From positions 1,560,022 through 1,624,021 of the forward strand of contig JAXLYE010000002.1 in NCBI GenBank assembly GCA_046351595.1: DNA of 64,000 nucleotides, in the 5' to 3' direction. Positions 7,575 to 56,770 of this stretch are shown here, piece after piece. Every line of letters begins with the position of its first letter. Positions within the stretch are counted from its first letter, which is position 1. The notes beneath the pieces are model-generated. The model was not told where the DNA came from. It saw only the letters and a list, made by a program, of their open reading frames with translations, and did no database searches. Both the position numbers and the translations under genes were made by a program. The stretch is from Polyangia bacterium (lineage in GTDB: Bacteria > Myxococcota_A > Polyangia > Palsa-1104 > JAEUJZ01).

Positions 7575-8270
7575 ATGAGGACCCTTGTTCTTTCTGCCTT
7601 GGCGCTCTCGCTGGTTGGCGTCTCCGGCTGCGGCCGGCACCGCTGCGATGGCTACAACTACCAGTGCCCGACCACGTACACGCCGACCCCGGGGCAGCCG
7701 CCGATCAGCGACCCCAACACCTTCGTGATCGACGCGGGCGCCGCGATCGAGCTGCCGCAGGCGACGCTCGGCATCACCACCAACGGCCGTGACTGGGTGC
7801 TCGCCTGGCAGGGCGACGCGTACCCGCGGCAGTTCCACGGCGCCATCACCTGCGCGGTCGGCTGCGTGATCACCGGCGCCCGCTACGACAACCCGGGGCC
7901 GGGCGACACCGCGGTGGTGACCGCCCAGAACCAGCTCCAGTTCACCGGCTACACCGACGCGATCGCGCCGCAGAACCTGGTCTTCTCGGCGACCGGCCAG
8001 CCCATGACCTTCGACCTGTACATCGAGAACACGCCGGCCGTCGGCCGCGTCGTATTCCCGTCGCAGGGCTACCTGGCCACGACCGACGCGATGCCGTTCT
8101 CGCTGATCAGCAGCAACGCCACCGCCTTCAGCAAGAAGATCGACAAGGCGCCGCAGTTCGTGCCGAAGCCGCCCGAGGACGGCCAGGCCGAGCACATCAT
8201 CACCGTTCGCGCCCCGACGCCAAAGACGGAGGCAGGTACCCAGGAGCAGGGCTCGGGCGCGGCGCAGTAG
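7575..8270 (+). CDS. Lipoprotein of unknown function
   Basis: A ribosome-binding site AAGGAAAGGAGC precedes the ATG. The signal peptide and lipobox read LALSLVGVSGC. Third codon positions are GC-biased. Confidence 0.75.
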   Translation: MRTLVLSALALSLVGVSGCGRHRCDGYNYQCPTTYTPTPGQPPISDPNTFVIDAGAAIELPQATLGITTNGRDWVLAWQGDAYPRQFHGAITCAVGCVITGARYDNPGPGDTAVVTAQNQLQFTGYTDAIAPQNLVFSATGQPMTFDLYIENTPAVGRVVFPSQGYLATTDAMPFSLISSNATAFSKKIDKAPQFVPKPPEDGQAEHIITVRAPTPKTEAGTQEQGSGAAQ

Positions 8271-9849
8271 CCGCCCCGTGCGCGCTGCGCCCAGGCAGCG
8301 CGTGCCACAGCCGCGAGATGATGATCGCCCCCAGCACCGCGAAGACCAGCGGCATCAGCGGCCAGACCTCAAACTCGGCCCCGGGCAGGCCCGCGACCTT
8401 GTAGCGGTCGAGGAGCCGCCCCATCACCTGGCTGACGATCGCGCCGGCCAGGTACTGCGCGCCGTCGAACAGCCCGGCCGCCGTCGCCACCGCCTTGCGC
8501 CCGCCGAAGTCCATCGACGCCGCGCCGCCGACCAGCGAGTGCGCGCTCTGCACGAAGAACGAGATCGCCACCAGCACCAGGCACGCGGCCCACGCCTCGC
8601 GCAAAGACGCCCGCAGCAGCAAAAGGCACAGCGCCTGACCGAGGAACGCGAAGAAGATCACCGGCGCCCGCCGCGAGCCGAACAGCCGATCCGAGGCGTT
8701 GCCCGCGGCCAGCCCGCCGAGGATCGCGGCCACCGGCATCGCGATCGAGGCGAAGAACGACGGCGCGAACGACGACAGGATCTTCACGCCGAAGACGCCG
8801 TCGAGGTAGCGCGGGTACCAGTGGTCGACGGAGTTGCGCACCATGCCGATGCACATCGACGAGAAGGCGATGAGCCACGGCTCGCGGCGCACGAACACCT
8901 TGCGCAGGACGAAGCCGAGCGTCGGCGCGGCGGCCTTTTCTTCCGGGGTCTCGTCGCCGGTGTCGATGTCCTTGAGGTTCGCCGCGGCCGGCGAGTTCTC
9001 GACGCGCGCGAACAGGACCACCCACATGACGACGAGGAACACCGCCGGGATGAAGAAGGCGTACTGCCACGGCAGGAACAAGAGCGTCATCGGCAGCAGG
9101 GTGAACGCCAGCGTGCGGCCGCCCTGGATCATGATGCCGAAGATGCCGGCGAACTTGCCGCGCTCGGAGATGCGGAACCAGGCGGCGTTGATCTTGACGA
9201 TCGAGAGCGCGCCGAACGACTGGAAGTAGTGGTTGCAGGCCCACAGCGCCGCGAACATGGCGATGGCGCTTGAGCCCTGCATGCCGCCGGCGAGCACCGC
9301 CGGAGTGATGATCTGGCCGCCGCTGCCCGTGACCGCGGGCGTGACGATCAAGAGGTGCCCGAGGCCGAACAGCAGGTTGAAGACCGCGGCGCCGGCCGCG
9401 CCGATGAGGATCGCGCGCTTGCCGCCGATGCGATCGGCGAGCGGCCCGTTGAAGAAGACCGCGCAGCCGTAGGTGAACAGGCCGGCGAAGAGCACCGAGC
9501 CGTAGTCCGAGTGGCTCCAGCCGAACTGCCCGGCGACCGCGGCCTGGACGGCGCTGAAGTTGTAGCGGCTCATGTAGAAGAAGCCGTACATCAGCCCGAG
9601 GAAGAACCAGTTCTGGAAGCGGCGCATCCGGAACTCTTGCGAGAGCGGCTCGCTGTCCGGGTGGACCTGGGGCGCCGGAGTCGGGTACTGCGGAGCCGGT
9701 GGTGCGGGGCTCGGCGGGGTGGCTGCGACCGGCGACGGGCTTGGGGCCGCCGACTTTGCGGCGGGGGAGGTCACGGGGGTCGGCGTCGCTGCAGAGGCGG
9801 ACGACGACGACGAGCGCGACCTGAGTCCGAGGCGCGGGACGGACGCCAT
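8200..9849 (-). CDS. MFS transporter of the organophosphate:Pi antiporter (GlpT/UhpT-like) family, with a Pro/Ser-rich N-terminal tail
   Basis: The product has at least 12 transmembrane helices. The WFFLGLMYGFFYMSRYNFSAV and GKFAGIFG segments are typical of the OPA family. The true start may lie internally, near MRRFQNW. Confidence 0.85.
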   Translation of the reverse strand: MASVPRLGLRSRSSSSSASAATPTPVTSPAAKSAAPSPSPVAATPPSPAPPAPQYPTPAPQVHPDSEPLSQEFRMRRFQNWFFLGLMYGFFYMSRYNFSAVQAAVAGQFGWSHSDYGSVLFAGLFTYGCAVFFNGPLADRIGGKRAILIGAAGAAVFNLLFGLGHLLIVTPAVTGSGGQIITPAVLAGGMQGSSAIAMFAALWACNHYFQSFGALSIVKINAAWFRISERGKFAGIFGIMIQGGRTLAFTLLPMTLLFLPWQYAFFIPAVFLVVMWVVLFARVENSPAAANLKDIDTGDETPEEKAAAPTLGFVLRKVFVRREPWLIAFSSMCIGMVRNSVDHWYPRYLDGVFGVKILSSFAPSFFASIAMPVAAILGGLAAGNASDRLFGSRRAPVIFFAFLGQALCLLLLRASLREAWAACLVLVAISFFVQSAHSLVGGAASMDFGGRKAVATAAGLFDGAQYLAGAIVSQVMGRLLDRYKVAGLPGAEFEVWPLMPLVFAVLGAIIISRLWHALPGRSAHGAATAPRPSPAPGYLPPSLASGRER

Positions 9850-10136
9850 GGGCTTGCAATAGCACAGCTAAGCCCGCAAACGGGTCAAAAAAATTCCCCA
9901 TTTTCTTCGGCCGCATCGACGGCAACTAGTGCCGGGTCCGCCCCAAGCCGGGGGGCCGCGCGCGTCCAGCCTTGACCTTCGCGCCGCGGCTCACTACCTT
10001 CATCTCGACCCGGCTGCCTGAATCGCCTCGGTGAGGAGAGTTTTTTCCCTACAAGCATTGAACCCGGGATCTGCCGCTGGCCGTGGCGTGCACGCCCGCT
10101 CGTCGGGAAGCCCAATCCGGCTATTTGCAGAGCCCA

Positions 10137-10195
10137 CCTACTTCGGTAGGGGTTCAAACTTCCACACCACGACCGGGCGGGGGTCATTTTTTTTG
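10137..10195 (+). ncRNA. Candidate small RNA 3' end: a UUCG-tetraloop hairpin followed by a terminator-like hairpin and a run of eight T residues
   Basis: CCUACUUCGGUAGG is a 5-bp stem closing a UUCG loop. GACCGGGCGGGGGUC followed by UUUUUUUU lies at about 10171-10194. It sits in a 466-bp gap between divergent genes and is in the wrong orientation to terminate either flanking gene. Confidence 0.3.
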
Positions 10196-10315
10196 TTGTC
10201 GTTCAGGGGGGGACCTTCCCGTCCCCCCTCCCTCGGCAGAGCCGAGTGAGCCTCGGCATCTGTCTCTCTGGGCCGCGCGTTTGCCTGTGCTATCTGTAGT
10301 GCCAAGGAGTCCGGC

Positions 10316-11035
10316 ATGAGCGAGCGGCGCGCCGACGGGGACAGCGACGGCACCGGGGACGACGGCAGCGTGGTCGGCTATGAGGTGAGCTCCGAGGAGG
10401 AGCTCGGGCGCGGTCGCTACCTGCGGCTGCGGCGGATCAACCTGCGCAACCGCCGCGCCGACGGCAGCCTGTCGCCGCCCTACTTCTGCGAGCTGGTCGA
10501 TCGGCCGCGCCACGGCACCGACGCGGTGGTGGTCGGGCTGTGGCGACGCGGCGAGCACGGCGTCGAGGTGCTGCTGCGGCAGGGGCTGCGGCCGGCGCTG
10601 CGCTTCGGGCGCACCGAGCGGCTGCCGGTGCCGGACGCGGCGCCGTACCTCTTGCTGACCGAGGTCGTCGCCGGCATCCTCGAGGACGAGGACGTCGGCG
10701 AGGAGGGCGTGCTGCGGCGCGCCGCGATCGAGGCGCACGAGGAGGCCGGGCTGCGCCTCGAGCCGTCCGCGTTCCGCCGCCTGGGCGGCAAGGTCTTCCC
10801 GACGCCCGGCATGGCGCCCGAGTGCTTCCACCTGGTGCACGCCGAGGTGCCGGCCGACGCCGCCGCCGCGCCGCCCGAGGGCGACGGCTCGCCGATGGAG
10901 GAGGGCAGCCGGCAGCGCTTCGTGCCGCTCGTCGAGGCGCTGCGCCTGTGCGATCGCGGCGAGATCGAGGACGCCAAGACCGAGCTCCTCTTGCGGCGCC
11001 TGCACGCGGCGCTGGCCGCCGGCACCCTGGGCTGA
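10316..11035 (+). CDS. NUDIX hydrolase
   Basis: The Nudix-box-like stretch reads GILEDEDVGEEGVLRRAAIEAHEEAGL. Confidence 0.75.
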   Translation: MSERRADGDSDGTGDDGSVVGYEVSSEEELGRGRYLRLRRINLRNRRADGSLSPPYFCELVDRPRHGTDAVVVGLWRRGEHGVEVLLRQGLRPALRFGRTERLPVPDAAPYLLLTEVVAGILEDEDVGEEGVLRRAAIEAHEEAGLRLEPSAFRRLGGKVFPTPGMAPECFHLVHAEVPADAAAAPPEGDGSPMEEGSRQRFVPLVEALRLCDRGEIEDAKTELLLRRLHAALAAGTLG

Positions 11036-11066
11036 GCCGCCGCCGTCGCCCGCCGTCGTCGCGCGC

Positions 11067-11597
11067 TCAGCGCACGCGCTTCCAGTACAGGAGCTCGGTG
11101 ATGCCGGGGCGAACGTAGTCCGCGAGCTGGCCGACCCGCGCGTAGCCGTGGCGCTCGTAGAAGCGCTGCGCCGCGGTGTTGAAGTCCGAGGTCAGGAGGA
11201 ACAGCTCCGACGAGGACACCGCGACCTGGCGCTCGACCTCGGCGAGCAGCAGGCTGCCCAGGCCCTGCCCGTGCTGGCCCGGCACGAGCGCAATCAGCCG
11301 CAGGTAGCCGCCGCGCCCGAGCTGGCCGCGCAGCGAGAAGCGCGCCAGCCCGCACAGCTCCGGACCGGTCGCCGCGGCGCCGTCGTCGGGGTCCGGCCGC
11401 TCGGCGACGAGCAGGCGCTCGTCCGGGGTCGCGCCGTGCGGCTCGGGCAGGAGCCGCAAGAGGTCGGTGTGCAGCCCCGTCGCCGTCGTGCCGTAGCGGG
11501 CGAGCAGCGGCAGCGTCACCAGCGACGCGGCCAGGCGCCCGAGCGGCGCGGCGTCCTTTGGCGAAGCGGCGCGGATGCGGGGGCTGGGGCTGCTCAC
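11067..11597 (-). CDS. GNAT family N-acetyltransferase
   Basis: The C-terminal acetyl-CoA fold reads RLIALVPGQHGQGLGSLLL...FYERHGY. I place the GTG start at 11597, overlapping the stop of the upstream ferredoxin gene as GTGA. The 279-aa track ORF is over-extended through an Arg-rich false N-terminus. Confidence 0.75.
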   Translation of the reverse strand: MSSPSPRIRAASPKDAAPLGRLAASLVTLPLLARYGTTATGLHTDLLRLLPEPHGATPDERLLVAERPDPDDGAAATGPELCGLARFSLRGQLGRGGYLRLIALVPGQHGQGLGSLLLAEVERQVAVSSSELFLLTSDFNTAAQRFYERHGYARVGQLADYVRPGITELLYWKRVR

Positions 11598-12175
11598 GGG
11601 GCGCCTCGCGAGGCGCTCGGCTTGAGCGCCAGCGCGGCCAGCGGCTTGACCACGATGGCCGCGGCCTTGTCCGTCGGGCAGTAGTACTCGCACAGGCCGC
11701 AGCCGGTGCACGCGCTGGTCACCTGCGGCAGCCCCTTTTCGTCTTGGATGAGGGCGCCGGGGATCGGGCAGCGCTCGACGCAGAGGCTGCAGGGCTGGCC
11801 CTGGTGCGCCAGGCAGCGGCGCGGCACCACCACGGCGCGGCCCATGCGCACGTCCTCGGGCCGCTCGATCGGCCGCAGCGCGCCGCTCGGGCAGTGCGTG
11901 GTGCACAAGAGCCCGTCACAGAGCACGCACGGTGCGTCGCGCGCGACGATGTGCGGCGTGCCCGCGCGCTCGCCGTACGCGACCGCGAGCGGGCGGATGG
12001 CGCGGCGCGGGCAGACGTCGACGCAGGCGTTGCAGCGCAGGCAGGTCTCGGCGAGGCCCTTCTCGTCGAGCGCACCGGGCGGCCGCAGCGGCACCGGCAG
12101 CGGCGGCTCGCGCGCGGCGTCGAGCGAGCGCCGGAACATCCCGAACAGATCGCGCCGGCTCAGCTTGTCGGCCAT
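11594..12175 (-). CDS. 4Fe-4S ferredoxin-type protein with multiple iron-sulfur clusters (NapF-like)
   Basis: Four cluster motifs are present: CLRCNACVDVCP, CVLCDGLLCTTHCP, CSLCVERCP and CTGCGLCEYYCP. Confidence 0.85.
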   Translation of the reverse strand: MADKLSRRDLFGMFRRSLDAAREPPLPVPLRPPGALDEKGLAETCLRCNACVDVCPRRAIRPLAVAYGERAGTPHIVARDAPCVLCDGLLCTTHCPSGALRPIERPEDVRMGRAVVVPRRCLAHQGQPCSLCVERCPIPGALIQDEKGLPQVTSACTGCGLCEYYCPTDKAAAIVVKPLAALALKPSASRGAP

Positions 12176-12242
12176 GCGCGACCTCGCTGGCTGGCCCGGC
12201 GGGCGGCGTCGCGGCGGGCAGGCGCCGCGCTATCATGCGGCC

Positions 12243-12713
12243 ATGCCTTCCCCCGTGGCAGTCGACAGCACGAGCACGTCTTCATCTCGCTTGGTTCTAC
12301 CACAGCAGCGGGCGCTGCACCGGGACCGCGGGGGAGACCGGCGGCGGCTGGGGCTGTGGGCGCTGCTCGGGCTGGCCGCTCTGGGCGCCAGCACCGGCTG
12401 CGGCAGCGAGGCGCCCCGGCCGCTGGCCGTGCGCTGGCGCCTGGTCGACGAGCGCACCTGCTTCGAGGCGGGCGTGGTCCTGTTCCGGTTCTCGCTCAAG
12501 GGCGGGGCGCTGGAGAGCAGCGAGGCGATGGTGCGCTGCAGCCGCGACCTGATGCAGCAGCAGGTGACGCTCGCAGGTGCGCTGCCCGGTGCGGCGCTGC
12601 TCGGCGAGGGCGACTCGGTGAGCGAGGCGCCGCTGTACCGCGGGGAGCTGCGGCTGCCGTCGCCGCTCCCCGACGAGCAGGAGCTCGTGCTGCGCTTCAG
12701 CGGCGGGATCTAG
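12243..12713 (+). CDS. Putative small lipoprotein
   Basis: A signal peptide and lipobox are present (LGLWALLGLAALGASTGC). The start is uncertain because codon bias near the ATG at 12243 is poor, and a GTG at 12255 or a TTG at 12291 are alternatives. The upstream half of the track ORF (11706-) is an artefact. Confidence 0.5.
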   Translation: MPSPVAVDSTSTSSSRLVLPQQRALHRDRGGDRRRLGLWALLGLAALGASTGCGSEAPRPLAVRWRLVDERTCFEAGVVLFRFSLKGGALESSEAMVRCSRDLMQQQVTLAGALPGAALLGEGDSVSEAPLYRGELRLPSPLPDEQELVLRFSGGI

Positions 12714-12714
12714 C

Positions 12715-14502
12715 TCAGTACGTGAGCACCAGCCGCGGCGCGCGCGCTCCGGCGGCGCCGTCGTGCAGCGTCAGCGCGTCGGCGGCGAAGTCGCGCGGCG
12801 TCACGGCGCGCAGGCGCAGCTGCGTCCGGCCCGCCGGGTTCAGCGCCGCGAGCGCGCTCGCCGGCAGCGCCACCTCGACAGCGGTGTCGTCGGCGGACGG
12901 CGGCGGAAACGTCGCGACTCCGACGAGCGTCGCGGTCGCGGCATAGTCATCCGCCTGCAGCGCCGCCGAGCGGCCGAGCGCGCCGCGCTGCACATCGAGG
13001 CTCAGCGACGACACGGTGCCGGCCAGCGACCTGCGCACCAGCACCAGCCGCGCCGACTTCACCACCGCGCCGGCGGGCAGCAGCGAGGTGTCGAACGACA
13101 GCACGCCGCGCAGCTGGTCCCCGCCGAACAGACCCTTGTCCCCGAGCTTGAGCACCGAGGCGCTCGGCGCATCGACCGGCAGCGACCCGACCGTGCCGTC
13201 CTCGGCGTCGATCGAGGCCAGCACCAGCGTCCGCGCCGAGCCGCCGTCGAGCGAGCCGCCGTCGACTGAGCCGCCGTCGACCGTGCCGCCGTCGACTGAG
13301 CCGCCGTCGACCGAGCCGCCGTCGACCGAGCCGCCGTCGACTCTGCCGCCGTCGAGCGAGCCGCCGTCGACTCTGCCGCCGTCGAGCGAGCCGCCGTCGA
13401 CGGGGGGCCGACCGCCGCGCGGGTGCGAGCGGAAGAACTGCCAGACCAGGGCGCTCTCGCTCGGGCCCTTGGGATCGGTGTACGAGCCGCTCGGTCCGCC
13501 GGACCAGGCGTGGTTCATGCCCTCGACCAGGACCTTCTGGAGCAGCGGCGCGCCGCTGCGGTCGTTGTAGGTCGAGCGTGTATAGCGCCGCCCGCCCGGC
13601 ACGGTCAGGGTCTCGCTGGCATCGGCGCGATCGTCGACGCTGCCGTTGTCGAGCCCGTCGTCGGCGAGGTCCGCGGTCTGCGCCCACTGGCTGAGGCCCT
13701 GCTCGGCGTTCACGGGCGCGACCGTGCCGTCGGCGGTGCCGTGGAAGATGAGCGCGGGCAGGGCGCGGCTGCGCGGGCCCATGGCGCGCAGGGCGAGCTG
13801 GCCCTGGGTGTTGGGATCGGGCCCGCCGCGGGACATCGCGGTGTTGGCGCTGAGCCCGTCGGTGGCGGCCTTATACTCCAGGCCCGAGCCGACCGCGATC
13901 GCGGCGAACACGTCGGGGTAGGTGGCGCCGAGGACCGCGGCCATGCCGGCGCCCGCCGAGAAGCCGGCGACGTACACGCGATCGCCGTCGATGCGGTAGC
14001 TCTTGCCGACGTGCTCGACGATGCCGGCGAGGATCGCGGGCTCGCCGCTGCCGCGCGCCTGGTGCCCGGGATCGAACCAGCGCCAGCACTTGATCGGGTT
14101 GGCGCTCGTCGGCTGATCGGGGAACGCCACCAGGAAGCCCTCGGACTCAGCGAGCGCCTCCATCTGCGTGCTCTGCGCGAACTGATCCGCGCTCTGCGTG
14201 CAGCCGTGCAGCATCACCACGAGCGGCGCACCGCTGCCGGGCGAGTAGCGCGACGGCACGAACAGCCGATAGGCGTAGCCGCCCGAGTGCTCGGTGGTCA
14301 GAAGCGGCGCGGCGCGCTCGCCGACCGGCGCCTGCGGCGCGCAGCCGACGCCGACAGCGACGGACACCAGGGCCCACAGGGGCAGCGCGCGGGCGCGGGT
14401 CCGAGCCAGAGCCAGAGGCTGAAGCAGGGGCCGAAGCAGAGGCCGAAGCAGAGGCCGAAGCAGAGGCCGAAGCAGAAGAACAGATCGCAACCGGGTGGGC
14501 AT
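12715..14502 (-). CDS. Secreted esterase of the PHB-depolymerase family (LpqC-like alpha/beta hydrolase) with a (DGGSx)n linker and a C-terminal beta-rich domain
   Basis: The core reads LVVMLHGCTQSADQF...KCWRWF...YVAGFSAGAGMA...HGTADGTV. The signal peptide MPTRLRSVLLLRPLLRPLLRPLLRPLLQPLALA is encoded by a 12-bp DNA repeat. The start is the ATG at 14502. Confidence 0.85.
   Translation of the reverse strand: MPTRLRSVLLLRPLLRPLLRPLLRPLLQPLALARTRARALPLWALVSVAVGVGCAPQAPVGERAAPLLTTEHSGGYAYRLFVPSRYSPGSGAPLVVMLHGCTQSADQFAQSTQMEALAESEGFLVAFPDQPTSANPIKCWRWFDPGHQARGSGEPAILAGIVEHVGKSYRIDGDRVYVAGFSAGAGMAAVLGATYPDVFAAIAVGSGLEYKAATDGLSANTAMSRGGPDPNTQGQLALRAMGPRSRALPALIFHGTADGTVAPVNAEQGLSQWAQTADLADDGLDNGSVDDRADASETLTVPGGRRYTRSTYNDRSGAPLLQKVLVEGMNHAWSGGPSGSYTDPKGPSESALVWQFFRSHPRGGRPPVDGGSLDGGRVDGGSLDGGRVDGGSVDGGSVDGGSVDGGTVDGGSVDGGSLDGGSARTLVLASIDAEDGTVGSLPVDAPSASVLKLGDKGLFGGDQLRGVLSFDTSLLPAGAVVKSARLVLVRRSLAGTVSSLSLDVQRGALGRSAALQADDYAATATLVGVATFPPPSADDTAVEVALPASALAALNPAGRTQLRLRAVTPRDFAADALTLHDGAAGARAPRLVLTY
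13238..13400 (-). repeat. In-frame 15-bp tandem repeat (about 10 units) encoding the (D-G-G-S-V/L/R) linker of the esterase
   Basis: On the + strand the unit is GAGCCGCCGTCGACY, repeated with minor variants. Confidence 0.8.
14419..14478 (-). repeat. In-frame 12-bp tandem repeat (about 5 units) encoding the LLRP repeats in the esterase signal-peptide region
   Basis: On the + strand the unit is GGCCGAAGCAGA, present 4-5 times. Confidence 0.75.
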
Positions 14503-48839: not shown

Positions 48840-51728
48840 CTACAGCTCGGCGAGCACGGCGCGCAGCTCATCGCCCAGGCGCATGCGCAGCCGGTCGGCG
48901 ATCTGCACCGCCTCGCGCAGGGCCGCGCGCGCCGAGCCGCGCTTGCCGCGCTCGATGAGGTGGCGACCGAGCGCCGCCAGCGCGTGCGCGAGGTTGGCCT
49001 GGTCGTCGATCTCGCGCAAGAGCGCCACGGCGCGGCGGAAGCAGTCCCAGGCCGGCGGCTCGCCCTCGGCGCTCTCGTCGAACAGCGTCGCGGCGTGGGC
49101 CTCGCCGAGCGCCAGCAGGGCGCGGCCGATGACCGGCTTCAGGCCGCTCTGCTGCGCCTGATCGAGCGCCTTTTCGCACAGCGCCACCGCGCCCTGCTGA
49201 TCGCCGCGGCGCAGCCGGATGAGCCCGAGCAGCCGCTTGATCTCGGCGAGCACCAGGCGATCCGTCAGCCGCTGCGCGACCGCGCTCGCCCGCACAAGGC
49301 GCGCCTCGGCCTCGTCGAGCAGGCCCTCGTACAAGAGCGCCTCGCCGAGGTGACACTCGACCCAGGCGAGCAGCGACGTCGGGCCGAGCGGCTCGCACAG
49401 CGGCAGCGCCTCTTCGAAGCGCGCGCGCGCCGACACCACCTCGCCGCGCAAGAGGTCGACGCAGCCCAGCGCATCGAGGCCGGCCGCGTGCAGGCTGGGG
49501 TCGCCGTCGTGCTTGCGCAGCGCCTCCTCGAAGCACCCCACGGCCGGATCGATGAGTCCGCGCAATAGTTCGATAAAACCGATATGGAGCAGCGACGTCG
49601 CGACCTTGCGCCGGTCGCCCAGGCGCCGCCGCAGCTCGAGCGCGCGCGCCGAGTGGTCGAGCGCCTCGCCGAGCCGCCCGAGCAGCCACTGCACCTGCCC
49701 CAGGTCGTCGAGCGCGTCGGCGCGGCCGCCGTCGTCCCCGAGGTCCTGGAACATCGCCATGGCGCGGGTCAGAAGGTCGATGGCCTGGACCGGATCGCCC
49801 TTGTGGCGATGGATGTCGCCCATCCAGTACAGCGCCCGCGCCGCCTGCGCCCGCGAGGCCATCGCGAACGACAGCCGCACCGCGCGCTCGCACGCCCGCA
49901 GCGCCGCGTCCAGGTCGCCGAGCGTCCGCAGCACCTCGGCGGACTTCATCCACAGCGTCACCTGCGCGCCGAGATCCACGGCGTCGGTACAGGCGAGCGC
50001 CCGCAGGAGCAGCCGCGGCGCCCGCGACAGCGCGCCGCGCTCGATCGAGAGCTCGGCCGCGCGGTGGTAGCGCCGCGCCGCCTCGGCGCCGTAGCCCGCG
50101 CGCTCCAGGTGCCGCGCCACCACCTCCTTGACCTCCTCGCGGTCGCCGCCGCGCGCGAGCTCGAGCCGCTGCGCGATCAGGTGGTGGCAGCGCCGCCGCC
50201 GCTCGGGCGCGATGCCGCTGTAGACGACCTCCTGCCACGGCGGGTAGGCGAAGCGGTACTCGCGCTCGCCCGCGATCTGGCTGTGCGGCCGCGGCAGCAG
50301 CACGCCCTGGCTGATCAGCTGATCGAGCAGCTCCACCACCGACGTCGCGATCAGGTCGCTGCCGCCCAGCACGTCGCTGAGCTCGGGCCCCTCGGGGGCG
50401 CCGTCGCCCGCGCCCTGCTGCGTGATGCCCGTGGCCTGACAGCGCGCCAGCATCAGCAGCATGCCGGTGTGGAAGTGCTCGCCGCAGACGGCCGCGTGCT
50501 CCAAGAGCTCGCGCGAGGCCGGCGCCATCGCCTGCCAGCGCGCCGCGACCAGGCCGTCGAAGCTGTCGGGCAGGGGCTGCTCGGCCAGGCGATCGTGGTC
50601 CCACTGCGGCAGGAGCGAGCCGCTGCTGTCGCTCGGTAGCCACGAGAGCACGCCGGTCTCGACGAGCAGCCGCACCAGCTCGACCACCGCGCGCGGCGAG
50701 CCCTCGGCGGTCTGCATCACGTGCTCGAGCAGCCGCGGCGGCAGCTCGTCGGGCTCGCTGCCGACGACCGCGCCGAGCAGCTCCGCGGTCTCCTCCGGCG
50801 GCATCGGCAACAGCTCGATGGGCTCGGGCTTGATCACGGCGCCGCCGAAGTCCGGGAACGCGTCGAGCAGCTCGGGCCGCGCGGCCAGGCCGATGACCAC
50901 CGGCAGGTCGGCCAGCCCGTCGAGCAGGTAGCTGACCAGGGCCATCGTCTCGGGCGTCGCGTGCTCCATCTCGTCGAGCAGGAGCACCAGCGGGCCGCGC
51001 CGCGCCTCGGCCGCGAGGAACCGCCGCAGCGCCAGGTGCAGCCGCGGCTCGCTGCGCATGAGCGAGATGCTGCCCGTGAGCGGGCCGCCGTCGGGCACCG
51101 GCAGCTGCAGCAGCTCGCCGAGCACGTTGGCGACCTCGGTGGCGCGCACCGCCGGCAGGAGCGTCCGGCACACGCGCACCAGCTTGTCGCGCGCCGCGTT
51201 CGCCGGCTCGTGGGGAAGGAGGTCGCAGCGCCGGCGCAGCAGCTCGACGAAGACGCTGAACGGCCCCGCGCCCTCGCCGCCCATGCGCGCGAGCAGCACG
51301 CGCTCCCGCGAGAGCGCCAGGTGCTGCACGATCAGGCGCCGCAGCTCGCGCAAAAGGCGCGTCTTGCCCAGCCCCGGCGCCCCGACCAGAAGGAAGCTGC
51401 GCAGCCGCGACTCTTCGCTGACGCCCTCGACCAGCCGGGCCAGGGCCTGCAGCTCGGCGCTGCGCCCGCACCAGGGCACCTCGCTGTCCGGCGTTTCTTC
51501 AGGGCCCAACGGCGTTGGCGGGCCGAGCGGCGTCGGCGGGCCCGGCGGCGGGGTCGACGAGGCGGAGCTGGCCGGCATCGGCCCGTCGGGCGCAAACGCC
51601 GACGGCGGCCCGCCCAGCGCGGCGAACGGATCGAAGTCGAGCCGCGGCACCTGCGCGGTGCGACAGCTTCCACATATCTCGGTGCCCTCGGGGACGGGCG
51701 CTTGGCAGCTCTGGCAGCGGCTCCGCAT
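48840..51728 (-). CDS. Large NTPase with a zinc ribbon, a P-loop AAA+/STAND-type domain and TPR repeats
   Basis: The N-terminal zinc ribbon is CQSCQ...CGSC. The Walker A motif is GAPGLGKT and the Walker B motif is LVLLLDEME. More than 10 TPR-like repeats follow. No HTH or kinase domain is present. Confidence 0.85.
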   Translation of the reverse strand: MRSRCQSCQAPVPEGTEICGSCRTAQVPRLDFDPFAALGGPPSAFAPDGPMPASSASSTPPPGPPTPLGPPTPLGPEETPDSEVPWCGRSAELQALARLVEGVSEESRLRSFLLVGAPGLGKTRLLRELRRLIVQHLALSRERVLLARMGGEGAGPFSVFVELLRRRCDLLPHEPANAARDKLVRVCRTLLPAVRATEVANVLGELLQLPVPDGGPLTGSISLMRSEPRLHLALRRFLAAEARRGPLVLLLDEMEHATPETMALVSYLLDGLADLPVVIGLAARPELLDAFPDFGGAVIKPEPIELLPMPPEETAELLGAVVGSEPDELPPRLLEHVMQTAEGSPRAVVELVRLLVETGVLSWLPSDSSGSLLPQWDHDRLAEQPLPDSFDGLVAARWQAMAPASRELLEHAAVCGEHFHTGMLLMLARCQATGITQQGAGDGAPEGPELSDVLGGSDLIATSVVELLDQLISQGVLLPRPHSQIAGEREYRFAYPPWQEVVYSGIAPERRRRCHHLIAQRLELARGGDREEVKEVVARHLERAGYGAEAARRYHRAAELSIERGALSRAPRLLLRALACTDAVDLGAQVTLWMKSAEVLRTLGDLDAALRACERAVRLSFAMASRAQAARALYWMGDIHRHKGDPVQAIDLLTRAMAMFQDLGDDGGRADALDDLGQVQWLLGRLGEALDHSARALELRRRLGDRRKVATSLLHIGFIELLRGLIDPAVGCFEEALRKHDGDPSLHAAGLDALGCVDLLRGEVVSARARFEEALPLCEPLGPTSLLAWVECHLGEALLYEGLLDEAEARLVRASAVAQRLTDRLVLAEIKRLLGLIRLRRGDQQGAVALCEKALDQAQQSGLKPVIGRALLALGEAHAATLFDESAEGEPPAWDCFRRAVALLREIDDQANLAHALAALGRHLIERGKRGSARAALREAVQIADRLRMRLGDELRAVLAEL

Positions 51729-51897
51729 CGGGTGATGCGTAGCCCGTCTGCGCCGCGGGGTGCAAGTGCAGATTCCTGCGCGCCCACCCGCCGCGGGCCT
51801 GCGCGCGCCCCGCCCCGCGGCGACCGTCCCCGCCGGGAGTCGACCGTCGAAAACGGCCGCGGCACGGGCCGCTGCGGCCGGTGCCAGGGCGCAGGCC

Positions 51898-52016
51898 TCA
51901 TGCACAGGGAACCAGACTTTGTCCGGTGACAAACCCGCGCGGGGAGCGCGCGGCGGGGGGAGGCTCGTCGAGCTCTGCTCGACGAGGGGGCACGGGAAAG
52001 TGCCCCCTGTATAAGA
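51898..52016 (+). ncRNA. Copy 2 of the four-hairpin repeated element
   Basis: It is about 80% identical to copy 1. The third stem uses a different sequence but remains perfectly paired (CTCGTCGAGC / GCTCGACGAG). The loop of the second stem differs (GGGAG versus AGAAA). Confidence 0.4.
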
Positions 52017-52342
52017 AAAAAAACGGCAAAAAATTTGCTCGCTTGATCGACCGACCCCAGCATGGGCGCGTGTCTGTGGGCACCGATCTAAATAGCCACA
52101 TAACGCCGTCGCGACAGCGCCATAAGCGCGGCGAAGTGCTGGCTATGATTGAAACGTTTCAAGAGGTTTCACAGGCGCAGGACCTCGGTCACGGGCTCCA
52201 CCACGGCCGACCGGCTGCCGAGCGGGCCGCGCCCCATGCCGGCCCCGCTGCAGACCCCGATGCCGGCCCCGGCACCAAGCGGCCGAGGCGTGCGCGCGGC
52301 GCTTCCGCTGCGGCCGCCTACCGTGCGAACATCTCTGCCGAG

Positions 52343-53233
52343 ATGATCTCGCCAGCCAGGGGGGCCGGGGTCGGGGGCGCGAAGGTGAACCCGGTGGGGC
52401 CGCGGCCGTTCCTCAAGTGGGCCGGCGGCAAGCGCCAGCTGTTGCCCGAGCTTCTGGCCCGGCTGCCGGCCTCGTTCCGTCGCTACCACGAGCCGTTCCT
52501 GGGCGGCGGCGCGCTGTTCTTCGCGCTCGCCGAGCGCGGCCACGAGGGCGCCCGCGGCGCCGTCCTGTCCGACGTCAACCCCGAGCTCGTCAACGCCTAT
52601 AAGGTCGTGCGCGATCGCGTCGAGACGCTCATCACGCTGCTCGGCGCATTCCGCAATGAAGAAGAGTTTTATTACCAGGTTCGTGAGCAGGACCCGAGCC
52701 AGCTCGATCCCGTGCAGCGGGCGGCGCGCCTCATCTACTTGAATAAGACCTGCTTCAACGGCTTGTTTCGCGAAAACCGGAACGGGCGATTCAACGTTCC
52801 GTTTGGCCGATACCGCCAGCCGCTGATCTGCGCACCGAACGAGCTGCGTGCCGCCAGCAAGGCGCTGCGCGGCGCCTCGATCGAGCGCCGCCCGTTCGAG
52901 GCCGCCCTGGATCTGGCCGGCCCCGGCGACTTCGTCTACTGCGACCCGCCCTACGCGCCGATCAGCCGCACCGCCTCGTTCACCGGCTACACCGGCGGCG
53001 GCTTCGACGAGGCGGCGCAGCGGCGCCTGGCCGAGCGCGTGCGCAGCCTCGGCGCCGCCGGCGTGCACGTGCTGGTCTCGAACTCGTGGGTGCCGCTGAC
53101 GCAGTCGCTGTACGACGGGCTGCGCATCGAGAAGGTGCTCGCCAGCCGGGCCATCAACAGCCGCGGCGACCGGCGCGGCAAGGTGCCCGAGCTGCTGGCC
53201 GCCGCCGGCCCCGCGGGCTCGACGGGCTGCTAA
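52343..53233 (+). CDS. Dam-family (alpha-class, D12) DNA N6-adenine methyltransferase, an orphan with no adjacent restriction gene
   Basis: The motifs are FLKWAGGKRQLLPEL, NKTCFNGLFRENRNGRFNVPFG and YCDPPY. An in-frame extension back to the ATG at 52145 is possible but begins with poor codons. Confidence 0.85.
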   Translation: MISPARGAGVGGAKVNPVGPRPFLKWAGGKRQLLPELLARLPASFRRYHEPFLGGGALFFALAERGHEGARGAVLSDVNPELVNAYKVVRDRVETLITLLGAFRNEEEFYYQVREQDPSQLDPVQRAARLIYLNKTCFNGLFRENRNGRFNVPFGRYRQPLICAPNELRAASKALRGASIERRPFEAALDLAGPGDFVYCDPPYAPISRTASFTGYTGGGFDEAAQRRLAERVRSLGAAGVHVLVSNSWVPLTQSLYDGLRIEKVLASRAINSRGDRRGKVPELLAAAGPAGSTGC

Positions 53234-53367: not shown

Positions 53368-54621
53368 TTAGCGGTTCGCGAGCTCGCGCGCGGCGCGCTG
53401 CCTGCGGTCCTTGTCGAGCTCCGCCGCGGACTCGCGGTTGCCGTCGGGGCGGGTGACCAGGCCGCGGGCGAGGAGCTGCTCGCGGCGCTCCTGCTCGCGG
53501 CGGCGCTCGCCCGGTGACAGGGCGCGGGCCTCGTCGAAGCCGATGCGCGAGCTGCCGCGGGCGCTGCCCTCGACGGCGTCGAGCATGGCCGTGTCCACCG
53601 ACGGGTAGCCGCGCCCGCGCAGGTGCGCCGCGAAGTCCTGGGCGCGCTGCGCGCTGTAGTGCCAGATGTCGCCCGTCGGGTAGCGCAGGATCTCGGACTT
53701 CACGGTGCGCAGCACCACGCCGCGCTCGTCGAGGGGCAGGGCCGTCAGGTTGTGGCGGAAGCTGTGCCCATAGCGGAACCACGACTCGGCGTTGGACAGG
53801 TAGATGACCCGCACCGGCACGCCGGCCGCGCGCGCCGCCTGCGCGATCTGCTGCACCGTGTGCGAGCCGTTGAGGTCCCCCAGCCGCGCGACGACGCGCC
53901 CGCGCTGCATCAGGCCGCGGATCGCCGCGTACTTGGCGTCGTCGCCGAGCCAGGTGTGCGGGCGGCCGCGCTGCTTCTGCAGGTGGTCGCGCAGGTCGTC
54001 GCGGTAGGTCTGGTACAGCTCCAAGAGGGCCTCGGCCTCGCCCGCGGCGCGCCGCTCGAGCACCGCTTTTACCGTCGGCAGCGCCGGCTTTTCGAACAGC
54101 GCGAGCAGCGCCTCGGGCGTCGCGGCCTCGCTGACCAGCGCCGAGTACAGGTGGTGCACGCGGACGACGGCGCCGTCCAGGTCGATGAGCCACAGCACCT
54201 GCGAGCCCGCGGCCGCGGCCAGCGTATAGTTCTGGTCCGCGCCGACGCCGAGGTAGCCGCCGCCGAGCCCCTGCAGGTCGGCGAAGAACAGGTCGTGGCG
54301 GCGCTCGTTGCTCCACATGTAGTGGCGCTTGACCTGGTGATCGCGCTCGTTGCCGGGAGTCCGCACCGCGGCGTCGAACGCCTCGTCGCCGGCTGGTGGT
54401 GCCGCGGGCGGTGGTGCCGCGGCCGGTGCCCCGCCCGCCGCGGGCCCCGGCAACGCCAAAGGAGTCGCCGGGGCTACGGCCGCGGCGGCCGGCTGCGTGA
54501 CCGCACCGGGACTCGGCTGCGCCCCGGCCGGGCCTCCCCCCACCAATCCGACCAGCGACGCCCCCAGCAGCGCGCCGCGCCCCCATGCGCTGACTTGCAC
54601 GGCTTGATCGTACACCCGCAC
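53368..54621 (-). CDS. Secreted hypothetical protein
   Basis: The GTG start is at 54621. A signal peptide is followed by a Pro/Ala linker and a roughly 300-aa domain (...MWSNERRHDLFFADLQGLGGGYLGVGADQNY...). Codon bias is excellent. The 522-aa track ORF is over-extended across the 23-bp repeat array. Confidence 0.65.
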   Translation of the reverse strand: MRVYDQAVQVSAWGRGALLGASLVGLVGGGPAGAQPSPGAVTQPAAAAVAPATPLALPGPAAGGAPAAAPPPAAPPAGDEAFDAAVRTPGNERDHQVKRHYMWSNERRHDLFFADLQGLGGGYLGVGADQNYTLAAAAGSQVLWLIDLDGAVVRVHHLYSALVSEAATPEALLALFEKPALPTVKAVLERRAAGEAEALLELYQTYRDDLRDHLQKQRGRPHTWLGDDAKYAAIRGLMQRGRVVARLGDLNGSHTVQQIAQAARAAGVPVRVIYLSNAESWFRYGHSFRHNLTALPLDERGVVLRTVKSEILRYPTGDIWHYSAQRAQDFAAHLRGRGYPSVDTAMLDAVEGSARGSSRIGFDEARALSPGERRREQERREQLLARGLVTRPDGNRESAAELDKDRRQRAARELANR

Positions 54622-54684
54622 CCGCCGGGTGTCAGCCGGGGCGCGCGTGAGCTGCGTCGCGGTGGGTAGCGACCAGGTATCAGT

Positions 54685-54780
54685 CTGGCAGCGCTGGGGC
54701 GCGCGGCCTGGCAGCGCTGGGGCGCGCGGCCTGGCAGCGCTGGGGCGCGCGGCCTGGCAGCGCTGGGGCGCGCGGCGACG
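54685..54780. repeat. Intergenic 23-bp tandem repeat, about 4 units (CTGGCAGCGCTGGGGCGCGCGGC)
   Basis: It lies between the divergent secreted-protein gene and aspS. Confidence 0.8.
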
Positions 54781-54904
54781 GCCCGGGCCCTTGTGCCGGC
54801 GCAGGGACGGGCAGAGGACGGGCACGAGTCGGGCAAGCACACGGACACAGGCGCCCGCACATCGGCGTGCCAGGCCGGCCGCGCGCCTGATAGACTGCCG
54901 GCCC

Positions 54905-56770
<1,866 letters not shown>

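Follow-up and report, generated by a model that had tools for sequence, protein, structure and literature searches.

Where does the gene of a Dam-type methylase that stands apart from any restriction system begin, and what might control its expression? The question is raised by a stretch of 64,000 nucleotides from an uncultured, soil-type Polyangia bacterium of the Myxococcota (GenBank assembly GCA_046351595.1, contig JAXLYE010000002.1, positions 1,560,022 to 1,624,021; hereafter the window), in which a preliminary description, made from the letters only, had noticed an orphan methyltransferase gene at 52145-53233 behind an AT-rich region. We compared this dam gene and its upstream DNA across 16 loci (approximately 14 distinct lineages; related loci carry L-numbers), whose Dam proteins are 52-90% identical and whose gene neighbours differ. 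The reading that we prefer, and to which we give a probability of roughly 0.6, is that of a solitary Dam methylase directed at GATC, 387 amino acids long from GTG 52070 and bearing a disordered N-terminal extension, whose gene would be expressed from an inherited sigma-70 promoter, likely as a leaderless mRNA, with GATC methylation feeding back on dam itself.

The methylase and its predicted target

The frame of 52145..53233 (+) is open, and its openness reaches back to 51743. The gene, as we re-delimit it below, and the motifs of its catalytic part are the following:

52070..53233, + strand: re-delimited dam gene, 387 codons and stop, GTG start (in-frame GTG and open reading frame in 16 loci; PF02086, TIGR00571)
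52409..52432, + strand: FLKWAGGK, which holds the equivalent of K9 of the Escherichia coli enzyme (EcoDam) and is invariant in the alignment of relatives
52490..52513, + strand: S-adenosylmethionine-binding motif I, EPFLGGGA, of the FxGxG type
52754..52813, + strand: target-recognition loop FNGLFRENRNGRFNVPFGRY (FNGLFR...NVPFGRY), with the equivalents of Y119F, N120, L122, R124, P134, R137 and Y138 by alignment to EcoDam and DpnM
52943..52954, + strand: catalytic motif IV, DPPY

The family assignment made in the preliminary description from FLKWAGGK and DPPY is borne out. The region 52409-53230 encodes a Dam/D12 alpha-class N6-adenine methyltransferase domain that matches PF02086 over its whole length (E 5.4e-58, 197 bits against a cutoff of 22) as well as the NCBIfam model TIGR00571 'dam' (268 bits, cutoff 115), and its motifs follow the alpha-class order of motif I, target-recognition region and DPPY. 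The gammaproteobacterial Dam equivalog NF008152 scores 182 bits, below its cutoff of 441, which places the protein outside that group. It is thus a member of the Dam family, but belongs neither to the orthologue group of EcoDam nor to the restriction-modification systems of the DpnII type. Its catalytic part is ordinary and is already annotated publicly as a DNA adenine methylase. A stretch of lower GC content (0.56-0.57) within the core, at 52581-52760, encodes the most conserved segment, rich in Asn, Phe, Tyr and Lys (FRNEEEFYY...LNKTCFNGLFRENRNGRFNVPFG), and we attribute this dip to amino-acid constraint and not to a foreign origin.

The best solved relatives are both GATC enzymes, namely DpnM (E 4e-60) and EcoDam (E 2e-45), which form with T4Dam the GATC-specific subgroup of Dam. 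In EcoDam, R124, L122, P134 and N120 serve GATC recognition, K9 and Y138 contact the first base pair, and Y119 intercalates (PMC4417163). The residues corresponding to K9, N120, L122, R124, P134 and Y138 are identical in the window and invariant across 44 aligned relatives, while Y119 is replaced by Phe, so that six of the seven are kept. Given this conservation, GATC is most likely the target of the methylase and the best prediction of its specificity.

The upstream element and the start of the gene

The upstream region and the N-terminal part of the gene contain the features listed here; promoter positions are counted from the G of GTG 52070 as +1.

52016..52023 (-54..-47), + strand: distal A-tract, UP-element-like; A-rich in most of the 16 loci, T-rich runs in L093 and L094, none in L011
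52028..52033 (-42..-37), + strand: proximal A-tract immediately 5' of the -35 box; AAAAA(A)T before TTGCNN in all loci
52035..52040 (-35..-30), + strand: -35-like hexamer TTGCTC; TTGCNN in 15 loci, TTGATT in L178
52045..52048 (-25), no strand: GATC between the two promoter boxes; 8 of 10 lineage groups have it, 3-5 nt past the -35 box
52058..52063 (-12..-7), + strand: -10-like hexamer CAGCAT; YAGCAT invariant in the 16 loci, 6-7 nt 5' of the GTG, with a spacer of 17 nt in the window
52062..52064, + strand: ATG overlapping the -10 box, a decoy start; shifted by one base against the dam frame in the window, L001 and L011, with ATA in its place in L178 and ATC in L179
52085..52088 (+16), no strand: second GATC; at +16 in the window, L001 and L175, at +6 in L089, L176 and L179, at +9 in L094
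52070..52408, + strand: N-terminal extension, 113 codons, basic, rich in Ala, Gly, Pro and Arg, predicted to be disordered; frame open in all lineages
52322..52357, + strand: conserved island RANISAEMISPA in the otherwise variable extension, containing a GATC (52345) and an ATG (52343); window, L001, L175 and L004 differ in it only at synonymous sites

The GC content, taken in 100-nt windows, falls to 0.51-0.57 over 51961-52180, versus 0.72 for the whole window. About a dozen comparable patches occur elsewhere in the window, and low GC alone therefore represents ordinary intergenic behaviour. Alignment of the upstream DNA, in turn, revealed a nucleotide element that is retained even where Dam identity drops to 52-57% and the neighbouring genes are different. 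Its layout in the 16 loci consists of an A-rich tract (in most), about 5 nt, AAAAA(A)T, TTGCNN, a spacer of 16-17 nt, YAGCAT, 6-7 nt and the GTG. Relative to this GTG, the two boxes are placed as in a textbook sigma-70 promoter, and the A-tracts occupy the places of UP-element subsites. A profile of the element finds a single occurrence in the 64-kb window; all others lie in front of dam genes of this clade, and the remaining ~150 Dam loci that were fetched do not contain it. We infer from conservation and geometry, not from consensus strength, that the AT-rich patch holds a promoter-like element, probably a sigma-70-family promoter that was inherited together with dam.

Other assignments of the patch were considered. 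Searches against Rfam, over the whole window at the gathering threshold and over 51850-52450 at E-values up to 10, gave only chance-level matches in the patch, and a known riboswitch or small RNA was rejected on these grounds. A sigma-32 promoter was discarded, as the CCCC run that it would involve is not conserved. Directly 5' of the promoter A-tract lie two back-to-back perfect GC-rich hairpins (51964-52008) with stems of 10 bp (51964-51973 / 51977-51986) and 9 bp (51985-51993 / 52000-52008), which are absent from the close relative L001.

The element might also be read as a sigma-54 promoter of the GG-N10-GC form (cGGCAaaaaatTTGCt, 52025-52039), or as the operator of a dedicated regulator, with transcription beginning ~12 nt past the GC, near the spacer GATC, and leaving a short leader. 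Regulation through sigma-54 is widespread in Myxococcota as a matter of general knowledge, and the GG-N10-GC spacing fits TGGCAC-N5-TTGC in the window, L005, L009, L010, L089, L091, L175 and L179. Yet sigma-54 promoters hardly ever lack this GG dinucleotide, and the other 8 of the 16 loci do not have it (TG in L001, L004 and L093; none in L094, L176, L177, L178 and L011). This explanation furthermore leaves both the invariant YAGCAT and its fixed distance of 6-7 nt to an in-frame GTG unaccounted for, and no gene for an enhancer-binding protein is adjacent. We hold it to be very improbable.

The sigma-70 geometry brings the start of the gene into focus. In 16 of 16 loci a GTG in the reading frame of dam lies 6-7 nt past AGCAT, with no stop codon between it and FLKWAGGK. 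The other two frames contain stops in all loci except L011, the shortest and most GC-rich. Eleven loci were tested for the probability of such an open frame arising by chance: it amounts to 0.32 in L094, to 0.73 in L011 and to 0.02-0.16 in each of the other nine, among which are all relatives of lower GC content. Most gene callers start the relatives at the ATG inside AGCATG, yielding N-termini such as 'MGCVS…' or 'MSSVP…', while in L178 the caller itself chose the GTG. We rejected the ATG at 52062 with its seemingly conserved 'MGCVS' N-terminus, since three loci (window, L001 and L011) have this ATG in another frame and two (L178 and L179) have none, whereas the GTG always keeps to the frame of dam. 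Translation thus most likely starts at GTG 52070 and gives a protein of 387 amino acids; a short isoform from an internal start might exist besides the long one. The start calls for this gene family disagree altogether: NCBI gives 279 aa, JGI gives 365 aa for a relative that is 86% identical (from a MIEAFQ ATG), and most others begin at an ATG that probably belongs to the -10 box. As a start at this GTG leaves space for neither a leader nor a Shine-Dalgarno sequence, the mRNA may be leaderless, or almost, and begin with GUG.

The N-terminal extension noted in the preliminary description is accordingly real and open in frame, yet its start is not the 'MIETFQ' ATG at 52145, which lies 25 codons inside the 387-aa frame, but GTG 52070, 113 residues before FLKWAGGK. 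The extension region appears to be translated, as indicated by in-frame indels, an excess of third-position changes and the share of synonymous ones. Close pairs of loci differ in it by indels of 36, 15 and 12 nt, all multiples of three, their substitutions are distributed over the codon positions as 6/3/15 and 18/11/29, and 42-58% of the changed codons are synonymous. Among lineages, the extension varies from 27 to 120 residues and can be aligned only poorly. Ser, Arg, Lys, Ala, Gly and Pro are abundant in it, and in the window it is net basic (15 Lys and Arg versus 9 Asp and Glu). In an AlphaFold2 model built on a 44-sequence alignment, the per-residue confidence (pLDDT) stays below 50 for most of residues 1-99 (1-22, 31-63 and 68-99) and exceeds 90 for most of the catalytic domain, suggesting that the extension is intrinsically disordered. 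Its very tip is conserved as M-S-[VL]-[SG]-[AT]-D or M-P-I-S-A-Q; this tip and the island RANISAEMISPA could possibly act as a degron, a localisation signal or a motif binding DNA or a partner. In L094 (6010-6222), the extension consists of four tandem copies of the peptide AASGASRPEN(R/H), which fits a disordered linker under low constraint. A motif resembling a DnaA box past the start (TCCACATAG, window 52096-52104; TATCCACA in L004 at ~6136; L005 at ~8058) occurs in differing frames and at differing distances and is lost in L175 and L177, so that it is probably due to chance.

One could instead assume a conventional short Dam starting at GTG 52394, ATG 52343 or GTG 52385 and preceded by a long structured 5' untranslated leader at 52070-52340, in which case the upstream conservation would be purely a regulatory feature of DNA or RNA; in a mixed version, the short form would be made alongside the long one. 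The GC content at third codon positions (GC3) climbs from 0.64-0.73 to 0.93-0.97 only from ~52331 on, a G-rich stretch precedes GTG 52385, the 279-aa form is the one called by NCBI, and the extension has no fold in the AlphaFold2 model. As RNA, this part of the gene (52070-52420) moreover folds more stably than shuffled sequences (-186 kcal/mol, z = -3.46). A leader, however, is hard to reconcile with a dam frame that is open from the conserved GTG in 16 loci, among them relatives of 50-58% GC in which chance would account for it with a probability of only 0.02-0.09 each, nor would it explain why the indels of close pairs are multiples of three, why synonymous changes are in excess and why the island varies at synonymous sites only. 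In addition, neither an internal start nor a Shine-Dalgarno-like sequence is conserved in the other clades. We therefore regard a short Dam as unlikely and favour the 387-aa protein.

GATC sites in the promoter

The predicted target of the enzyme recurs in the promoter of its own gene. A GATC is present in the spacer in 10 of the 14 distinct sequences, corresponding to 8 of the 10 lineage groups, and the next commonest tetranucleotide is found in four groups. The flanks of this GATC are only 29% identical among lineages, that is, essentially random, and the conservation of the site amid such randomised surroundings indicates that the GATC itself is under selection. At the place equivalent to the second GATC, the L005 clade and L091 have GATG. 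The preliminary description had stressed the GATC-containing promoter. Within this genome alone the observation has no significance, two GATC in ~200 bp being no more than expected by chance; the sites become meaningful only through their conservation at the same position in 8 of 10 lineage groups.

This arrangement suggests that dam is regulated by the methylation of its own promoter. According to the mechanism that we propose, a sigma-70-family promoter consisting of UP-like A-tracts, TTGCTC, a 17-nt spacer and CAGCAT would set the start of transcription at or beside the GTG, and selection would have retained the enzyme's own predicted target in the spacer and usually a second time in the first 6-16 nucleotides of the transcript. 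Whether the promoter is unmethylated, hemimethylated after replication or fully methylated would then feed back on dam transcription, either directly or via a methylation-sensitive binding protein. Parallels for such methylation feedback are provided by CcrM of Caulobacter and by several Dam-sensitive promoters of E. coli.

In this joint reading, the parts with direct support are the family and the motifs, the lack of a restriction partner, the conserved promoter-like element, the in-frame GTG with its open frame and the spacer GATC. Several observations weigh against it. The specificity for GATC is a prediction from conserved contact residues. The hexamers match the E. coli consensus at only 6 of 12 positions, and a scan of 51850-52450 for sigma-70 consensus promoters and terminators gave no match. 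Both the transcription start and the leaderless initiation at GUG are derived from geometry alone. The NCBI annotation places the gene at 52394..53233, with 279 aa from GTG 52394 ('DNA adenine methylase', MFO0575056.1; metagenome-assembled genome with locus tags U1A78_), and the GC3 of the extension is far below the 0.92 of the core and atypical for coding sequence in this genome. Finally, the spacer GATC is missing in the clade of L005, L009, L010 and L177 and in L011, all of which keep the promoter, so that autoregulation, if real, would not be universal; and the binomial probability of ~1e-9 computed for the GATC overstates the independence of lineages that are related to one another.

Genomic setting, known systems and meaning

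The genes around dam comprise a PI-PLC-like gene, the gene of a zinc-ribbon/AAA_16/TPR protein, a DUF7790 gene, aspS, a TetR regulator, hemB, sensor kinases, ffh and 6S RNA. The 6S (SsrS) RNA gene, at 10012-10189 (+), matches the full-length Rfam model RF00013 with 56.3 bits. The two immediate neighbours are:

48840..51728, - strand: protein with zinc ribbon, AAA_16 (STAND-type) and TPR, 962 aa from ATG 51728 (Pfam; start MRSRCQSCQ found by comparison)
53368..54936, - strand: lipoprotein-like gene of the DUF7790/LIC_10091 family, with aspS (AspRS) next

Neither a restriction enzyme nor a specificity subunit nor a phage gene was found among the neighbours within ~10 kb using Pfam, NCBIfam and PADLOC, and an adjacent endonuclease is likewise absent from at least eight different neighbourhoods of relatives. 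The adjoining endonuclease that defines restriction-modification systems of the DpnII/MboI type is hence lacking both here and in the relatives. The 489 GATC sites of the 64-kb window (one per 131 bp; observed/Markov-expected 1.04) show no avoidance. That the methylase is solitary, as the preliminary description proposed, thus stands, no restriction partner having been detected within ~10 kb or beside dam in any relative examined.

The same description had also pointed to an AAA+/TPR NTPase next door and to the lack of restriction and phage genes. Both statements are correct, but this neighbour is not incidental. Its N-terminus forms a CxxC…CxxC zinc ribbon (MRSRCQSCQAPVPEGTEICGSCR), and in L001, L004, L175, L089, L094 and L011 an orthologue is located 5' of dam in divergent orientation. 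This arrangement is conserved across at least four deep lineages. The orthologues are 46-93% identical over their full length in the five cases compared, while that of L175 was recognised by its AAA_16 Pfam match only. The orthologue is absent beside dam in the L005 clade, L091, L176, L178 and L179. The pairing of AAA_16/TPR and dam is probably ancestral.

This pairing raises the question whether the methylase could after all provide the modification in a restriction or defence system, its partner being the divergent NTPase or else an endonuclease from some other part of the genome. Divergent orthologues of the NTPase accompany dam in the clade of the window, L089, L094 and L011, STAND NTPases with TPR sensors are generally known to be common in defence, and the best PADLOC model for the methylase is 'Type II methyltransferase' (E 5e-91), slightly above 'orphan methyltransferase' (E 1.5e-84). 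However, neither a nuclease nor any other effector domain could be assigned to the AAA_16/TPR protein by Pfam, NCBIfam or PADLOC, which gave only a weak TPR match, and five other lineages have lost the pairing while retaining both dam and its promoter. The lack of GATC depletion and the housekeeping character of the neighbourhoods (aspS, hemB and ffh; pyrD-like, purB, clpX and rsmG in relatives) also speak against a defence role, and dam and the AAA_16/TPR gene diverge to a similar degree, as expected under vertical inheritance. We consider a hidden partner improbable and retain the solitary methylase.

Metagenomic relatives at 86% protein identity share the order PI-PLC-like / AAA-TPR / dam / DUF7790 / aspS, which L004 (78%) also has, except for the PI-PLC-like gene. 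In relatives at 52-70% identity the surroundings of dam are different, consist mostly of housekeeping genes and contain no nuclease; examples are a position between a dihydroorotate (DHO) dehydrogenase gene and purB, clpX and rsmG, and one beside malic enzyme and glutathione synthetase. The former arrangement is that of an activated-sludge clade (L005-L010 and L177; ~8001-13326), with rsmG (gidB) being located near the replication origin in many bacteria. Scans of genomes and metagenomes by protein alignment, of which the best 600 stretches each were considered, gave for the most part distant Dam homologues, of 65% identity or less; among the matches listed, only L009-L011 from the genome scan were additions to the clade, and the metagenome scan contributed none.

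In the preliminary description, the low GC content upstream had been taken as typical of a horizontally acquired or a regulatory region. Of these, the low GC and its regulatory nature are upheld, but horizontal acquisition is not supported, given an element inherited with the gene across Polyangia, the core GC3 and the synteny kept in close relatives. A recently acquired methylase of mobile or phage origin, with the AT-rich flank marking the transferred island, would account for the low GC upstream (0.51-0.57) and for the lower-GC stretch within the gene, and Dam genes are frequent in phages. Yet the core GC3 of 0.92 equals that of the neighbouring genes, the internal stretch coincides with the most conserved segment of the catalytic core, gene order is conserved among close relatives, and neither an integrase nor a transposase, a tRNA or a phage gene was found around dam. 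The closest homologue among viral contigs is only 51% identical, and these contigs contain no close relative of dam nor the promoter element. The 48 viral matches to the 17-base promoter pattern are due to chance, none of them lying beside a Dam or reaching an nhmmer E-value of 0.01 or less. Recent acquisition is therefore extremely unlikely, and the genome-like GC3 of the core together with the distance to the nearest viral relative identifies this solitary methylase as native.

Compared with known systems, the Polyangia enzyme shares with EcoDam and the gammaproteobacterial Dam proteins PF02086 and TIGR00571, the alpha-class motif order, DPPY and the conserved residues K9, N120, L122, R124, P134 and Y138, as well as a solitary and chromosomal gene that is vertically inherited within its lineage. 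The two are not orthologous (NF008152, 182 versus 441), however, and EcoDam does not have the disordered N-terminal extension of 27-120 residues. The promoter also differs from that of EcoDam, being specific to the clade and holding the enzyme's own site. M.DpnII 1 (DpnM, PDB 2DPM) is the closest solved structure by sequence (E 4e-60) and has the same predicted target, but its gene adjoins that of its endonuclease in a Type II restriction-modification system, whereas no endonuclease is adjacent here or in the relatives examined. With CcrM of Caulobacter and other Alphaproteobacteria there is a functional analogy only: CcrM is a lineage-conserved solitary adenine methylase with target sites of its own in its promoter region, but it belongs to the beta class, recognises GANTC and is unrelated in the order of its motifs. 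That CtrA, methylation and Lon regulate CcrM has been shown experimentally, while the Polyangia dam is known from sequence comparison. The leaderless genes of Actinobacteria, Deinococcus and archaea resemble it in having a -10 box 6-7 nt 5' of the start, no Shine-Dalgarno sequence and GTG or ATG as first transcribed triplet; unlike theirs, the arrangement proposed here is deduced from conservation alone. The Polyangia enzyme would thus differ from the described Dam enzymes in its lineage-specific disordered extension, its probable leaderless GTG start and its conserved promoter carrying the enzyme's own site.

Searches of the literature on Dam-type methylation or methylomes in Myxococcota and myxobacteria gave nothing specific, nor did those on leaderless transcripts in myxobacteria, and the use of 5' GUG in Myxococcota is not documented in the literature searched. 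Lineage-fixed solitary adenine methylases such as Dam, CcrM and CamA each control replication timing, repair or development, and to our knowledge none has been characterised in Myxococcota. The locus described here offers a predicted GATC methylase that is conserved together with its promoter across Polyangia, a promoter with a selected target site, and a corrected gene model of 387 aa instead of the annotated 279, which matters for protein expression and for the annotation of metagenomes, as gene callers give three different N-termini to this family. The regulatory architecture and the corrected gene model, both derived from comparative analysis, appear to be new. If the inferences behind them fail, the locus is one more Dam homologue.

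The enzyme may provide its host with GATC-based epigenetic regulation. One may go further and imagine a branch of Polyangia with a vertically inherited, solitary GATC methylase that would be an independently evolved counterpart of gammaproteobacterial Dam and alphaproteobacterial CcrM, translated from a leaderless GUG mRNA, expressed from a promoter that reads its own mark, controlled in stability or localisation through the tip of its N-terminal tail (MS[VL][SG][AT]D or MPISAQ) and coupled to the zinc-ribbon STAND ATPase/TPR protein. This picture is doubtful as a whole, but together these components would constitute an epigenetic switch linked to replication or development in bacteria known for multicellular behaviour.

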